Positions 448 to 39,316 of a DNA stretch of 45,192 nucleotides are shown in pieces. The DNA is from an uncultured Peptococcaceae bacterium. GTDB lineage: Bacteria > Bacillota > Desulfotomaculia > Desulfotomaculales > Desulfocucumaceae. The DNA is taken from positions 1 to 45,192 of the forward strand of contig CAZHAJ010000001.1 in NCBI GenBank assembly GCA_964530215.1, read 5' to 3'. Position numbers and translations under genes: made by a program. Each line of letters opens with the position of its first letter. Positions within the stretch are counted from its first letter, which is position 1. Below the pieces are notes generated by a model. That model did not search any database, was not told the DNA's origin, and saw only the letters and a list, made by a program, of their open reading frames with translations.

Positions 448-1629
448 TTAATAATTAGCTAATTGTTTGGGGAAATAATCTTGTAGACCACCTTCTCTGT
501 GTACATCTAAAGTAGTACAATGCAGTGCGCCACCAAAGGGAACTACATTTTCATAAGGAATAGGAAGAACTTGTGCCCCCAACTTATCTAACTGGTCCAT
601 GTAGGCAGTTTCATGGGACTCTACACAGATTCTGTTTGGTGCTACTGAAAACGTATTCATTGATATCCAAGACTTCTCATTATAGCCGCCAAATAGGTAT
701 ATTTGACTCATATAAGTATGGGCTGGTCTTGCGGCGGGCACCAATTCCCAATCATTTTTTTCAAACAGCTCCCAAAACTCTGGAGTGCGGGGCGCCCAGT
801 CAGGATTGTACATCATTAAGCCAGGTCTAACTATTGTTAGATTTACATCGATATGCCACGGATGGTGGTTAGCTGGCTTTCCTTTCTCTTTAGGGGTGTC
901 AAACTCAACTACGTGTACTCTGATTCCCAACGAATTAAACATGCGCTTAATCCAATCAAATCCACCACGGTTTGTTACCGAGGAGGCTTGTACAAAAATA
1001 TCCTTGCCAAATCTCATAATGTCAGCGGCATCCCATAGTGGTTCCTTTTCAGTTAATTGAAAGTCCCAGTTATATAGTTTTTCTGTTTTTTCCTCATCAG
1101 ACCATACATTGTAATAATAATAGTAATAGTTCTCTTTGTATGATTCATTTGTTAGGCGAGGTTTAGGAGCTGCAAAATGAATAACTTCTGGATCTTCCTT
1201 GAAGTAACGCTCGAAAATAGGTCTAAAATTTAGATACTCATACCAACGTGAACGCCGAGTACCCGTGGCCTCAACTATATAATTACCATGTATTGTGACC
1301 ATGTCGCGAACGTTGTTTACCCCATGGCTGTTTAGCTGTGTCCAGTCCGGTGTGGATACGGGCTTATTTAGCATAAAGTCTTGTATTTCCACTCTGTCCA
1401 CTACAGCCCCCTCTTTTTCCAGTACCTTTACAAAGCCATCCATCTGTTCATTTGCTGCATCCACCATTTCTTGAGGAAAGGGACCGTAGGACCCTAGGGG
1501 GAAGCCGCCATCCGGCAGATCATACCACCATGCAGGTTCCGGAGCGGGGATGTTGGTTCCCTCCGGTCTCCCTACGATTACACGTTTTAGTGGATCCCAT
1601 TCATTCCATGAATTAACTACCTGTGCCAT
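448..1629 (-). CDS. Amidinotransferase of the L-arginine:glycine amidinotransferase (AGAT/StrB1) family
   Basis: The 393-aa ORF is alignable by eye along its length to vertebrate AGAT. Matching motifs include NEWDPL..VIVGR, TPDW, RSRWYEY, APKP, FDAADI.R.G.DIF.Q.S.VTN, the catalytic His in PWHIDV and the catalytic Cys in GGALHCTTLDV. RBS is GAAGGGAG. Confidence 0.85.
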   Translation of the reverse strand: MAQVVNSWNEWDPLKRVIVGRPEGTNIPAPEPAWWYDLPDGGFPLGSYGPFPQEMVDAANEQMDGFVKVLEKEGAVVDRVEIQDFMLNKPVSTPDWTQLNSHGVNNVRDMVTIHGNYIVEATGTRRSRWYEYLNFRPIFERYFKEDPEVIHFAAPKPRLTNESYKENYYYYYYNVWSDEEKTEKLYNWDFQLTEKEPLWDAADIMRFGKDIFVQASSVTNRGGFDWIKRMFNSLGIRVHVVEFDTPKEKGKPANHHPWHIDVNLTIVRPGLMMYNPDWAPRTPEFWELFEKNDWELVPAARPAHTYMSQIYLFGGYNEKSWISMNTFSVAPNRICVESHETAYMDQLDKLGAQVLPIPYENVVPFGGALHCTTLDVHREGGLQDYFPKQLANY

Positions 1630-1724: not shown

Positions 1725-1853
1725 ATTCATTATATTCATATATTTCACATAAAGCAAGATAAAAATGAATAATATTATTCTTTACATTCATGATGTGGTG
1801 CTGTAATATAGCTATGGGGCATAAATTCTTTTCAGCATGAATATAAATGAATT
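1725..1853. promoter_or_regulatory. Divergent promoter/operator region with repeated ATGAAT half-sites
   Basis: Perfect 14-bp palindrome GAATAATATTATTC (1767-1780). ATTCATTATATTCAT (1725-1739) is nearly the inverse of ATGAATATAAATGAAT (1838-1853). The region is AT-rich and lies between the XRE gene and the amidinotransferase gene. Confidence 0.35.
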
Positions 1854-1879
1854 GGGTAAGAGTGTCTGAGGTGATAAAA

Positions 1880-2080
1880 ATGGGCAGCAATGAAAGTATT
1901 GGTGAAAAAATTCGAAGGCTAAGAATAGCCAGAGGCCTTGAACAGGGGGATTTGGCTTATCGGAGCGGTATTACCCAAAGCCATTTGTCAAAAATTGAAA
2001 ATGGCAGAACGAATACGTCTCTAAGGGTGCTTGAAAATCTAAGCAAAGCACTAAGTGTGCAGAATATAATAATTTTTTAA
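1880..2080 (+). CDS. XRE-family helix-turn-helix transcriptional regulator (short, 66 aa)
   Basis: The segment IGEKIRRLRIARGLEQGDLAYRSGITQSHLSKIENGRTNTSLRVLENLSKAL is a classic Cro/C1 HTH. I moved the start to ATG 1880 because a GAGGTG RBS precedes it; the track ORF starts at 1847. Confidence 0.8.
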   Translation: MGSNESIGEKIRRLRIARGLEQGDLAYRSGITQSHLSKIENGRTNTSLRVLENLSKALSVQNIIIF

Positions 2081-2252
2081 ATATAAAGTGATAAAGGCAG
2101 CAAATTTTAAATTTTAAATATTTAATATTGCTCTAGAACTCGTTCCATGACTGAACAATATGGGGGCAAATACCTGAATCACCGGCCTGGTCGGGGACAG
2201 GCCGATGACTCAGGTAAAAATTTTACCTCGTTTCTAAGTAGTTTCTACTATT

Positions 2253-2278
2253 ATCCTCAGAAAGAGGATTTTTTTTTT
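2253..2278 (+). terminator. Rho-independent terminator
   Basis: ATCCTC-AGAAA-GAGGAT hairpin followed by T9 (2270-2278). Confidence 0.6.
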
Positions 2279-2349
2279 GTATTCATAAACATACAGTTTT
2301 TTTTAAATATTACTGCAATAAATGACACGGTTCCTCTTGTTGGCTGCTG

Positions 2350-2378
2350 TTGACTTCTGGATATTGATGTACTATAAT
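2350..2378 (+). promoter_or_regulatory. Sigma-A type promoter of the leuS leader
   Basis: TTGACT (2350-2355), 17-nt spacer, TATAAT (2373-2378). Confidence 0.6.
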
Positions 2379-2571
2379 ACAGTTTGTTATCTCTAAGAGG
2401 AAAAAGACTTTGAAGGGGAGCAGTAAGCATTCCAAGTCTATCAGAGAGCCGTCGGTTGGTGTAAGGCGGCAGGCAAGGCTGCAGAAACTCGCCCCGGAGT
2501 CTATCGGGAGAAAATTAGCAGGTATCTCGATACGGTTTGCACCGTTATTGGCGTAGAGAGGGTAATACAAT

Positions 2572-2646
2572 GGGGCTGTGGCGCAGGGGGAGCGCGCTTC
2601 CTTGGCATGGAAGAGGCCGCGGGTTCAATTCCCGCCAGCTCCACCA
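2572..2646 (+). tRNA. tRNA-Ala (anticodon GGC), CCA encoded, embedded in the leuS T-box leader
   Basis: Hand-folded cloverleaf. Acceptor GGGGCTG/CAGCTCC includes the G3:U70 alanine identity pair. U8 and A14 are present. D stem is GCGC/GCGC with G18G19. Anticodon stem is CTTCC/GGAAG, loop TT-GGC-AT. Variable loop is AGGCC. T arm is GCGGG-TTCAATT-CCCGC. Discriminator A73 is followed by CCA. Confidence 0.85.
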
Positions 2647-2673
2647 TTTACCAATCAGGGTGGTAACGCGGGT

Positions 2674-2705
2674 AAAGCCCGTCCCTATCAAGGGACGGGC
2701 TTTTT
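2674..2705 (+). terminator. T-box leader terminator
   Basis: GCCCGTCCCT (2677-2686) pairs with AGGGACGGGC (2691-2700). The loop is 4 nt and the stem is flanked by AAA and TTTTT. Confidence 0.85.
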
Positions 2706-2749
2706 GATGATATTAAAAAGTTATTACCATTTATGGAGAGGAGAAATAT

Positions 2750-5230
2750 ATGTTGCCCGAAGATATTTATAATTTTAGTGAAATCGAAAAAAAATGGCAG
2801 AAGTGCTGGGAAGACCAAGAGCTATATAAGATTTCTGATAAAGACGAAAAACCAAAGTATTACTGTCTTGAGATGTTTCCTTACCCCTCAGGCAAACTGC
2901 ATATGGGGCATGTAAGAAACTATTCCATCGGTGATGTGGTATCAAGGTATATGACTATGCAGGGTTACAACGTATTGCATCCAATGGGATGGGATGCTTT
3001 CGGACTCCCTGCCGAAAATGCCGCCATAGCAAATGGGATTCACCCTTCGGTATGGACATACCAAAATATTGACACCATGCGAATGCAGTTAAAGCAGCTG
3101 GGCATTAGTTATGACTGGAACCGTGAAATTGCCACTTGTCATCCTGGGTATTATAAGTGGACTCAATGGTTATTTTTGCAGCTTTACAAACATGGCTTGG
3201 CATATAAAAAGAAAGCTGGGGTAAATTGGTGCCCCTCCTGTGCCACTGTTCTGGCCAATGAACAGGTTAAAGAAGGAAGCTGTGAGCGGTGCAGCAGTGA
3301 AGTGGAAAAAAGGGAGCTTAGTCAGTGGTTTTATAAAATTACACAATATGCCCATCGTTTGCTGGAAGATATGAAGCTGTTAGACGGATGGCCGGAAAAA
3401 GTTAAGCTGATGCAGGAAAACTGGATTGGAAGAAGTGAAGGTGCAGAGTTAAAATTTAAGCTGGCAGATGGTGACGATGTAATCACTGTTTTTACCACAA
3501 GACCAGATACTGTTTTTGGTGTCACCTATATGGTTTTATCTCCGGAACATCCCTTGGTGGAACAGCTCATCCAGGGTAAGTCTCAGGCTGAGGAAATTAG
3601 GCGATTTGTAAAAGAGGTAAAAAACTTAAGTGAAATCGACCGCACTTCTACAGATACTGAAAAGATAGGTTATTTTACCGGAGCATACTGCATTAATCCC
3701 CTTTGCGGTGAAGAAATACCTATATTGGTAGCAAATTATGTGTTATTAGAATATGGAACCGGCTGTGTAATGGGAGTACCTGCCCATGATCAGCGGGACT
3801 TTGAATTTGCGCGAAAATATGATTTGCCCGTCAAGGTTGTTATACAGCCAGAGGGTACAATTTTAAATCCTGATACAATGACAGAGGCATATTCCGGGGA
3901 AGGAAAAATGGTAAATTCAGGCCAGTTTGACGGACTTTCGGACAGCCAGGCGATAATGGCGGTAACCAATTACTGCGAGGAGCAGGGAATCGGTAAAGGT
4001 GTTGTTAATTATAGGCTAAGAGATTGGCTTATTTCTAGGCAGCGTTACTGGGGCGCTCCCATACCCATCATTACCTGTGAGCATTGCGGGGTAGTGCCTG
4101 TTCCTGAAGAGGACCTTCCGGTAGAGCTGCCCACGAATGTGGAGTTTAAGCCCACAGGTAAATCTCCACTGGCAGAATGCCAGGATTTTGTCAATACTGA
4201 TTGTCCAAAATGCGGAGCAGTAGCCCAAAGGGAAACGGATACTATGGATACCTTTATGTGTTCTTCCTTTTATTACTACCGTTATGCCGACGCTAGGGAT
4301 TCGGTCAGGATTTGGGATAAAAAAAAGGTTGATGAATGGCTTCCTGTAGATCAATATATCGGCGGGGTTGAGCATGCAATTTTGCACCTGCTTTATTCCA
4401 GATTTTTTACCAAGTTTCTAAAGGATATTGATCTCGTGTCTTGCACGGAACCGTTTACCAATCTTTTGACCCAAGGAATGGTGTTAAAAGATGGTGCTAA
4501 GATGTCAAAGTCTAAAGGTAATGTAGTAAGTCCTGAGGAGATAATATCAAAATATGGAGCAGATACCGCAAGGCTCTTTATCTTGTTTGCTGCTCCACCG
4601 GAGCGTGATTTGGAGTGGAGTGATCAGGGGGTTGAAGGCAGCTTCCGTTTCCTTAACCGGGTATGGCGGCTGGTGGTTCCTCTGGCAGGTAAGTTAAACA
4701 GCAGTAAGCAGTCGGAAACCGATAAGCTGTCAGGAGTTCACCGTGAAATGCATAGACTTACCCATGTTACTATTAAGAAGGTTACAGATGATGTGGGCGG
4801 CAGATTTAATTTCAATACAGCTTTGAGTGCAATTATGGAAATGGTAAACGGGTTGTATCAATATAAAGATCGTTCGGATGCTGATGCTGACGTTATAAAT
4901 GAGGCGGTGGAGTCATTGCTGTTAATGCTGGCACCCTTTGCTCCCCATATAGCCGAGGAGCTTTGGAAATTAACCGGACGTGGGGGAAGTATTCACAGTC
5001 AGCCTTGGCCTAAGTATAGACAGGAAGCTTTAGTTCAAGATAAAGTGGAGATTGTGGTTCAAGTAAAGGGTAAAATAAAAGATAGAATATGGGTTCCTGT
5101 AGGTCTGTCTTCGGAAGAATTAAAAGAAAATATTTTATCTCAGTCAGGTGTTCAGCAACTTATAAAGGGCTCAGAGATAATAAAGGTGGTTGCCGTGCCT
5201 GGCAAACTGGTTAATATCGTTATTAAGTAA
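2750..5230 (+). CDS. leuS: Leucine--tRNA ligase
   Basis: 826 aa with class I HIGH motif (HMGH) and KMSKS, and LeuRS-typical CP1 and Zn-finger cysteines. RBS is GGAGAGGAG. A Leu T-box precedes it. Confidence 0.97.
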
Positions 5231-39069: not shown

Positions 39070-39316
39070 TTTTAGAAAAGCAGGTTACCCTGCGGTGTTC
39101 GTATAAGCTTGGGAGTTTAAAACCAACACTTAAACATTGGGAGTCTAACTCTGGTTGTGGCATGTAAGCCTTTTTTGGTAACATAAAGCAGTCAGGAGGA
39201 CACCCACCTATTTTAGAATAGGTTATAAACTTTTAGTTTTTACGGCACGTGTGGGGTGTTATGCTTGGAGCGCAAAACTATCGATCTTATGTGTTAAGGT
39301 CGATAGTTATTATTTT
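39070..39316 (+). ncRNA. Candidate structured non-coding RNA in the aspS-tcdA spacer (possible 6S RNA by synteny; fold not confirmed)
   Basis: A 375-nt ORF-free spacer ending in a good terminator. Long-range pairing AGTTTAAAACC (39114-39124) with GGTTATAAACT (39221-39231). Direct repeat GGTGTT..AT..GCTTGG.AG at 39095-39116 and 39254-39270. Local hairpin CCTATT-TTAG-AATAGG. Confidence 0.25.
39276..39316 (+). terminator. Rho-independent terminator
   Basis: AACTATCGA(T)C (39276-39286) pairs with GTCGATAGTT (39299-39308), followed by ATTATTTT. Confidence 0.65.

Follow-up and report, generated by a model that had tools for sequence, protein, structure and literature searches.

A tRNA-Ala(GGC) gene within the Stem III loop of leucine T-box leaders upstream of leuS in several bacterial phyla

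How can the gene of one transfer RNA (tRNA) lie inside a riboswitch that is built to sense another? The question is raised by a stretch of 45,192 nt from an uncultured Peptococcaceae bacterium (contig CAZHAJ010000001.1 of assembly GCA_964530215.1), here called the window. In it the leuS gene is preceded by a leader of the T-box type with a leucine specifier, and a tRNA-Ala(GGC) gene stands between Stem I and the T-box sequence of this leader. An earlier note on this DNA, made from the letters alone, had read the tRNA as embedded in a single riboswitch. From the comparison of the window with related loci, we consider it quite probable that a working tRNA-Ala(GGC) gene is seated in the permissive apical loop of Stem III of a canonical CUC T-box, where it would be transcribed together with the leader and excised by tRNA processing.

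In the whole window ARAGORN called one tRNA only, a tRNA-Ala(GGC) at 2572–2646 on the forward strand, and the Rfam tRNA model RF00005 matched the same positions with 66.9 bits against a gathering score of 29, so that the tRNA read in the earlier note is called by both programs. The gene has the G3:U70 pair, U8, the anticodon loop U33-GGC-A37, a GGTTCAATTCC T-arm, the discriminator base A73 and an encoded CCA. The Rfam T-box model RF00230 matched positions 2401–2689 over model positions 1–219 with 131.9 bits (gathering score 93, E = 3e-29). How this model would treat the insert had been proposed as a check, and its alignment spans the tRNA and passes over 80 nt within the Stem III loop. The discriminator frame reads GAGAG-GGUAA...UUACC-AAUCA-GGG-UGGU, which fits RRRNG-Stem III-AA and then UGGN, the first part being the motif 5'-RRRNG-Stem III-AA-3' as defined in PMC7583486. 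The nested tRNA lies in the apical loop of a retained Stem III, a GGUAA/UUACC helix with GAGAG and AAUCA as its flanks. When the discriminator region of the window was folded, Stem III and the acceptor stem were recovered, with the minimum-energy fold closing Stem III around the acceptor stem; the exact cloverleaf was not recovered and the z-score was +0.50. A minimum-energy fold other than the cloverleaf and an unremarkable z-score are usual for tRNA sequences and carry little weight in either direction.

To find the same arrangement elsewhere, one genome per species (185,579 species) was scanned for the T-arm pattern GGTTCRANTCC followed, after 14–44 nt, by the T-box sequence GGGTGGNANCGCG, a pattern that is independent of tRNA identity. 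At least 120 matches were obtained, and all counts are among the matches listed. ARAGORN placed a tRNA-Ala(GGC) immediately upstream of the T-box sequence in 99 of these 120, and four further loci have the same arrangement clipped by the edge of the locus. The remaining matches have no tRNA, or a tRNA for Leu, Cys, Ser, Arg or Val, in line with a rough prior estimate of chance matches. The eight with a non-Ala tRNA carry neither an antiterminator 3' strand nor a terminator and were rejected as chance matches. The scan loci with a nested tRNA-Ala(GGC), two loci derived from LeuS (L121 and L122) and the window together form a set of 101 listed loci, at least 101 in all. The uniqueness implied in the earlier note was not borne out, since these loci belong to several phyla; as read from the genomes, the gene-in-riboswitch layout is widespread and old.

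The loci agree in the gene that they precede and in the codon that they read. A gene for LeuS follows downstream in 98 of the 101 listed loci, its product being 45–80% identical to the protein of the window, and the contigs of the other three end too early. By its LeuS homologues, of which the closest is 80% identical, the organism of the window belongs among Desulfotomaculia/Peptococcaceae-like Bacillota. In all 97 leaders that reach far enough upstream the specifier is CUC, and the context GAA-CUC-R is kept in the same 97/97. The F-box sequence CCGTTA directly upstream of Stem III is seen again in many related loci, as an uncounted impression from the listing, and a run of at least five T lies within 100 nt downstream in 74/101.

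The helix enclosing the tRNA shows the same frame across the loci, in the order RRRNG, strand, linker, tRNA, linker, complementary strand, AA plus three nucleotides, and GGGUGG, and its two strands change together (for example GGTAA/TTACC, GACAAA/TTTGTC, GATAGG/CCTATC, GTCGG/CCGAC and GACTGA/TCAGTC). The register of Stem III was anchored on the two independent flanking motifs, with RRRNG and at least 3 bp required, and 83 of the 101 listed loci (73 distinct sequences) were placed in this way. Over a 7-bp frame, 87.7% of the cells in the 73 sequences are standard pairs, against 24–42% with the 3' partner slid by 1–3 columns; changes on both sides were found at 7/7 pairs, and 0 of 500 shuffles reached the observed covariation score. 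Among the placed loci the helix has 3–10 bp, with a median of 6, and the single-stranded linkers on either side of the tRNA measure 7 nt at the median, ranging from 0 to 40 nt. According to the structural work PMC7583486, the stem and the loop of Stem III are variable and its flanks are essential. Two claims of the earlier note fared differently here. Its view of one riboswitch instead of two units stands, as a single RF00230 match spans the tRNA and Stem III covaries across it. Its suggestion that the tRNA substitutes for Stem III does not, because a separate helix of 3–10 bp with the RRRNG...AA flanks is kept in the 83 placed loci, the rest being without a register.

The tRNA itself is maintained with equal strictness. 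Conservation statistics were calculated on the 61 distinct nested sequences of the 101-locus set. All 21 stem pairs are standard in 61/61 (100% of stem cells, with 3:70 counted as the G:U identity pair), and compensatory double changes were detected at 15 of the 21. The anticodon is GGC in 61/61, U33 is present in 60/61 and position 37 is a purine in all of them, while G3:U70 and A73 are found in 101/101 listed loci. CCA is encoded in 79/101; the 22 loci without an encoded CCA are mostly from Chloroflexota. Judged by this pattern of substitutions, the nested element is a genuine tRNA-Ala with every feature of a decoding tRNA, under strict purifying selection. Selection for decoding is indicated because the anticodon and the alanine identity elements are invariant, a constancy for which neither a scaffold nor a handle for processing would have any need. 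A locus set apart is L039, of a Syntrophomonadaceae metagenome-assembled genome (MAG; JAAYRQ010000102.1, approximately 1345–1518, forward strand), where of the tRNA-Ala just the 3' half, from the anticodon loop on, is present and joined to unrelated AT-rich sequence, with the 3' half of the T-box and leuS intact; either the copy is disrupted here or the assembly is chimeric.

Whether the T-box framework needs the tRNA can be judged from Desulfurispora thermophila (L135, AQWN01000005.1), in which a leucine (CUC) T-box of 224 nt at 870–1093 reaches 103 bits without a nested tRNA; there is no tRNA anywhere in the 9.5-kb locus. The context, rsfS / T-box(CUC) / AMP-binding gene / leuS, is that of its relatives, and the LeuS is 74% identical to that of the window. 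Stem III is here a plain 7-bp hairpin, GAGCG-GGUCGCG-(8-nt loop)-CGCGGCC-AAGCG-GGGUGG. The framework does not require the tRNA, because this ortholog is complete with an ordinary hairpin. Since relatives on all sides carry the tRNA, the insert-free leader looks like a secondary loss, and by this comparison it is probably one. The comparison of leaders from related genomes, which the earlier note had proposed, has thus given an insert present in at least 101 loci and absent from D. thermophila, with Stem III and the tRNA both covarying.

A second scan was carried out on metagenomes, with a base other than U required at position 70, which excludes tRNA-Ala, and with the antiterminator strand required. 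Among its nine matches no nested tRNA of another identity was found: six are T-boxes without a tRNA in the locus, one is a tRNA-Tyr (L124) without a T-box and two have neither. Within these scan patterns, and as far as the scanned sequences go, the nesting is specific to tRNA-Ala(GGC) in leuS leaders, which favours a single origin. A T-box match of 403 nt on the metagenome contig Ga0334722_10006242 (L128, 7233–7635) has UAC (Tyr) as its specifier, read by eye, and an insertion of about 180 nt that is not a tRNA and that lies, likewise by eye, between Stem I and Stem III.

By their record titles, the loci come from Bacillota (Syntrophomonadaceae, Thermosyntropha, Peptococcaceae/Desulfotomaculia, Thermacetogeniaceae and Desulfitispora), Chloroflexota (Anaerolineae, Chloroflexia, Thermomicrobiales, Ktedonobacter, Limnocylindria and Caldilineae), Armatimonadota (one MAG) and Coprothermobacterota (two MAGs), and by record title and taxonomy entry also from Candidatus Sysuimicrobiota (Fervidifonticultor). 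The arrangement is carried by the cultured and fully sequenced Pelotomaculum thermopropionicum SI (L134), in which the T-box match of 125 bits spans the tRNA. Rfam was consulted for 23 tRNA-bearing loci, and in 23/23 a full-length RF00230 match spans the tRNA, the match of L137 being clipped at its 5' end by the locus edge. The gathering score was reached in 12 of the 23, relatives scoring 96–133 bits. The 11 distant loci scored 50–86 bits, below the gathering score of 93, with full-length matches and E-values from 5e-8 to 4e-17, and they include every non-Bacillota locus submitted except one of Chloroflexia. Because the insert lowers the score of the T-box model, many such leaders are hidden from standard annotation.

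Two variants of the leader were noted in passing. In the Coprothermobacterota MAGs (L051, 2087–2325, and L094) the nested tRNA is kept, the Stem I of L051 is much shortened, with its distal part missing in the alignment, and a divergent tRNA-Asn(GTT) lies about 188 nt upstream in both. In L043, L082, L096 and L113 the T-box bulge is UGGC in place of UGGU and the nested tRNA-Ala keeps A73, which means either that the discriminator base of the cognate tRNA-Leu is unusual or that a mismatch is tolerated.

The anatomy of the leader in the window is detailed in Table 1. The single promoter, the specifier, the T-box sequence, the terminator and the start of leuS are all in place as the earlier note had given them. 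In scans of positions 1900–2900, forward strand, the promoter of the table is the sole promoter-like site and the sole terminator-like site is at 2253–2269, upstream of it; no promoter-like or terminator-like site was returned between Stem I and the tRNA.

Table 1. Features of the leuS leader. Coordinates are positions in the 45,192-nt window and all features are on the forward strand.
Feature	Position	Strand	Details and basis
Sigma-70-type promoter	2350–2378	+	TTGACT 2350–2355, 17-nt spacer, TATAAT 2373–2378; 11/12 match
T-box Stem I	2401–2502	+	GA/K-turn motif, AGAGAG bay, GGUUGGUG distal loop, specifier loop; Rfam RF00230 alignment
Specifier CUC (Leu)	2488–2490	+	Context GAA-CUC-G at 2485–2491; purine after the codon; leuS downstream
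Stem II (S-turn) and Stem IIA/B region with F-box CCGUUA	2503–2549	+	Rfam alignment
Stem III 5' purine string RRRNG = GAGAG	2556–2560	+	Motif definition of PMC7583486
Stem III 5' strand GGUAA	2561–2565	+	Pairs with 2648–2652; Rfam alignment and minimum-energy folds
5' linker UACAAU	2566–2571	+	Would-be RNase P leader of the nested tRNA
tRNA-Ala(GGC) gene	2572–2646	+	ARAGORN and Rfam; CCA encoded at 2644–2646
Stem III 3' strand UUACC	2648–2652	+	1 nt after the tRNA; Rfam alignment, covariation, folds
AA linker (AAUCA 2653–2657), T-box sequence (2653–2672), antiterminator 5' part	2653–2676	+	Rfam alignment
Antiterminator: helix A1 GGG; bulge UGGUAAC; helix A2 GCGGG	2658–2660; 2661–2667; 2668–2672	+	Rfam alignment, sequence
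Intrinsic terminator GCCCGUCCC/GGGACGGGC and UUUUU	2677–2705	+	13-bp hairpin by predicted fold; U-run 2701–2705
leuS (leucine-tRNA ligase, 826 aa)	2750–5230	+	ATG at 2750; Pfam tRNA-synt_1 and Anticodon_1 on homologues

The UGGU of the antiterminator bulge (2661–2664) would pair with the NCCA end of uncharged tRNA-Leu. The 5' strand of the terminator doubles as the 3' strand of the antiterminator: CCCGUCCC (2678–2685) has the T-box 5' strand as its antiterminator partner in the Rfam alignment and GGGACGGG as its terminator partner in the predicted fold. In the structures so modelled, the antiterminator and the intrinsic terminator of the window leader are mutually exclusive.

The promoter lies 17–23 nt before the start of the T-box model match in the window, in L121 (11/12 match) and in P. 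thermopropionicum (12/12, TTGACA-17-TATAAT). The order in P. thermopropionicum SI is promoter, T-box with the tRNA, AMP-binding gene and leuS. Such an AMP-binding gene (acyl-CoA-synthetase-like, PF00501, 551–561 aa) stands between the leucine T-box and leuS in several Desulfotomaculia (L029, L073, L133, L134 at 1727–3391, L135, L136 and L137) and is not present in the window; from its position it is apparently under leucine-tRNA control. A gene between leader and leuS was found in 16 listed loci. In L072, L015, L090 and about eight more it is a class IV aminotransferase, ilvE-like (PF01063), of about 310 aa, whose open reading frame (ORF) starts approximately 45–105 nt after the T-box sequence. 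These loci are labelled Sysuimicrobiota, Armatimonadota, Anaerolineae or unclassified; the identity was taken from inspection of the ORFs and from a Pfam match to PF01063 on that of L072.

Additionally, in 12 Chloroflexota-type loci (L026, L027, L040, L043, L048, L052, L061, L063, L068, L077, L090 and L107) a tRNA-Ala(CGC) lies on the same strand 182–356 nt upstream of the nested tRNA. This distance is about what Stem I, Stem II and the 5' strand of Stem III take up, so Stem I and Stem II lie between two tRNA-Ala genes, and in L027 the upstream tRNA ends 18 nt before the T-box start. From this spacing it follows that the leader sits inside a tRNA-Ala operon in those genomes.

Upstream of the window leader are an HTH_3 (XRE-type) regulator (1847–2080, forward strand) and an ORF of 393 aa without a Pfam match (448–1629, reverse strand). 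The upstream genes of relatives differ from these, being RRM_1 / rsfS in L121, L122, L134 and L135, and rsfS in L136. Elsewhere in the window, a 6S RNA (SsrS) gene was found at 39084–39261 on the forward strand (RF00013, 96.6 bits against a gathering score of 46.4).

How could both functions be served by one transcript? A folded tRNA, whose ends lie side by side, would form a compact insert at the distal tip of Stem III, directed away from the discriminator core, and tRNA-Leu(GAG) would be sensed as usual during transcription. The leuS T-box is predicted to terminate transcription upstream of leuS, with read-through dependent on tRNA-Leu. Between the end of the tRNA (2646) and the U-run of the terminator (2701–2705) there are about 59 nt, which would take roughly one to two seconds to transcribe. 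The tRNA would be present on every initiated transcript, terminated or read through. Its 5' end would be released by RNase P, and its 3' end by exonucleases that trim it where CCA is encoded; where it is not, RNase Z and CCA addition would take their place. The output of tRNA-Ala(GGC) would then be constitutive from the leader promoter, and leuS would be expressed on read-through only. The proposal of the earlier note that leader transcripts serve as tRNA-Ala precursors appears to be the best-supported functional reading, indirectly, through the flawless maintenance of the tRNA. Excision would also cut the Stem I/II sensor from the leuS messenger RNA (mRNA), which would begin with the discriminator/terminator hairpin. 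That sensing and RNase P cleavage are ordered kinetically is plausible, and the cut pieces could also stay joined through the Stem III helix. The arrangement most likely arose once, by insertion of a tRNA gene into a permissive loop, and was probably retained because the nested copy became a needed tRNA gene; excision might conceivably bring an added benefit for regulation or mRNA stability.

Several points weigh against the reading of a working tRNA gene in a tolerant loop, or against the evidence used for it. The requirement of RRRNG and at least 3 bp inflates the first three pairs of Stem III, and 18 of the 101 loci have no register; pairs 4–7, which are free of the register selection, still covary. 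The labels of MAGs are unreliable, some of them saying Proteobacteria, Bacteroidales or Actinomycetota for loci whose LeuS is Bacillota- or Chloroflexota-like, and those with implausible labels are probably binning errors. A passive passenger would be expected to disappear or move elsewhere more frequently than the one loss observed, so the conservation across phyla may point to a further function. The nested tRNA might be an integral, selected part of a composite device, in which excision would be the programmed retirement of the sensor, the leuS mRNA would be stable and capped by a hairpin, and the output of tRNA-Ala(GGC) would be tied to the leader promoter; we hold this doubtful. If true, a T-box would sense one tRNA and would make, and be processed through, another; the riboswitch architecture would be of a new class, either kept from before Bacillota and Chloroflexota diverged or transferred anciently between them. 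It seems to us unlikely that the riboswitch has in the tRNA a selected, functional module that is more than a passenger. Such a module could act through a programmed processing step, in which RNase P and RNase Z or exonucleases cut out the tRNA, the sensor is discarded and the read-through leuS mRNA gains stability, through 75 extra nucleotides and a fast-folding cloverleaf that lengthen the binding window for tRNA-Leu and pre-organise Stem III, or through a tie between leuS and a stable-RNA promoter. It would suit the occurrence in at least 101 loci of several phyla with one clear loss only, the restriction, among the loci found, to tRNA-Ala(GGC) and to leuS leaders, and the leader within a tRNA-Ala operon in Chloroflexota. 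Cleavage of the Bacillus subtilis thrS T-box leader upstream of its terminator is said to stabilise the read-through mRNA (attributed to Condon et al. 1996). Structures between Stem I and the antiterminator may widen the tRNA-binding window, as proposed in PMC4919913. Against such a module stand the D. thermophila T-box, complete with an ordinary hairpin, and most known leuS T-boxes, whose Stem III is short, with a loop of about 7 nt in the Rfam consensus. Linkers of 0 to 40 nt speak against a precise structural role, and any tRNA or hairpin would serve as a handle or a delay, whereas the invariant anticodon and identity elements point to decoding.

Other readings deny that the element is a tRNA gene or that it is nested at all. 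A non-decoding tRNA-like element, which would tune antitermination by mimicking in cis an uncharged acceptor end paired with the T-box bulge, or by luring away the Stem I platform or alanyl-tRNA synthetase as a decoy, is very improbable. The ACCA of the window (2643–2646) is indeed complementary to the UGGU 14 nt downstream, as the earlier note had pointed out, and the nested tRNA has A73 in every listed locus; tRNA-Leu is expected to carry A73, like tRNA-Ala. As a conserved function, however, a mimic in cis is unlikely, for CCA is not encoded in 22/101 listed loci, the four loci with a UGGC bulge keep A73 in the nested tRNA, and the paired 3' strand of Stem III intervenes between ACCA and UGGU. 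A mimic would need neither GGC, U33 (60/61), a purine at position 37 and G3:U70 nor four stems, all of which are maintained; an insert-free ortholog exists in D. thermophila; and a constitutive mimic of an uncharged end would defeat regulation. Hardly credible is the reading of two independent units that only look nested (a tRNA with its own promoter between a degenerate T-box fragment and a separate attenuator) or of an assembly artefact. The window does come from a metagenome-assembled genome, and nothing else speaks specifically for such a reading, whereas the same arrangement is found in at least 101 independent assemblies, the complete genome of P. thermopropionicum SI included. Promoter scans of the leaders in three Desulfotomaculia genomes (window, L121 and L134) gave no internal promoter, and no terminator between Stem I and the tRNA and no T-box sequence upstream of the tRNA were found in the same three, as the earlier note had stated for the window. 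Stem III pairs and covaries across the tRNA, which a single T-box model match spans, and neither half of a T-box works alone by the established mechanism (PMC7583486). The favoured reading is still that the loop of Stem III holds a working tRNA-Ala(GGC) gene.

T-boxes are textbook tRNA-sensing RNAs, and here a second, unrelated tRNA gene is found inside the sensor in at least 100 genomes of several phyla. A stable RNA would be expressed in a new mode, from the constitutively transcribed and mostly terminated part of a riboswitch. The apex of Stem III takes a 75-nt folded domain, a structural tolerance of use to those who study T-box structure or engineer T-boxes. One and the same molecule has to accommodate RNase P and 3'-end processing along with a decision taken during transcription, which would make the leader a natural system for asking how processing and switching are ordered in time, with D. 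thermophila as a natural insert-free control and P. thermopropionicum SI as a cultured, fully sequenced host. T-box control of leuS is likely to be under-annotated in Chloroflexota and related phyla, since of 19 related leaders tested the insert brought 11 below the gathering score of Rfam.

Full-text literature searches and a reading of Wels 2008, the TBDB papers and T-box reviews gave no description of a tRNA gene inside a T-box, of another amino-acid identity or otherwise, a brief earlier mention in the comparative papers of 2008–2009 being still possible; to this extent the claim of novelty in the earlier note holds. The leader shares with the canonical leuS T-box (RF00230, Bacillus-type) the CUC Stem I, Stem II, Stem IIA/B, the Stem III frame RRRNG...AA, UGGU, the antiterminator/terminator and leuS itself. 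It differs from it at the apex of Stem III: the loop measures about 7 nt in the Rfam consensus and, in D. thermophila, 8 nt, whereas here the tRNA-Ala(GGC) and its linkers amount to 80 nt by the Rfam alignment. Odd insertions in each of the T-box domains are noted in PMC7583486, and stem Sa of the staphylococcal glyS T-box, as described in PMC9177973, is likewise a lineage-conserved extra fold in the discriminator region. Stem Sa and other such insertions are simple helices without a known separate product, whereas the insert in the leuS leaders is a gene in its own right, encodes a different tRNA and is presumably cut out by tRNA-processing enzymes.

The co-transcription of tRNA genes with a protein gene is known from the thrU-tyrU-glyT-thrT-tufB operon of Escherichia coli. 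One promoter serves tRNA and mRNA there as here, the two being split by RNase P and 3' processing, but the tRNAs of that operon lie upstream of the mRNA, whereas the nested tRNA splits the sensor of a riboswitch from its decision domain. In the thrS leader, as proposed here, a cut separates Stem I from the terminator-proximal part and the mRNA starts with a protective hairpin. The enzyme there is reportedly a general mRNA endonuclease that cuts where the RNA is unstructured, and the cut sites in the leuS leaders would instead be set by the nested tRNA, through RNase P and the 3' tRNA enzymes. Cloverleaf-like folds in longer transcripts that are excised by RNase P are also known from MALAT1 mascRNA and from precursors of transfer-messenger RNA (tmRNA), as mentioned in PMC4919913; those are non-decoding mimics, whereas here the full identity set of tRNA-Ala and its anticodon are conserved. 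Both components are thus of known kinds, and their nesting is a new, conserved architecture.

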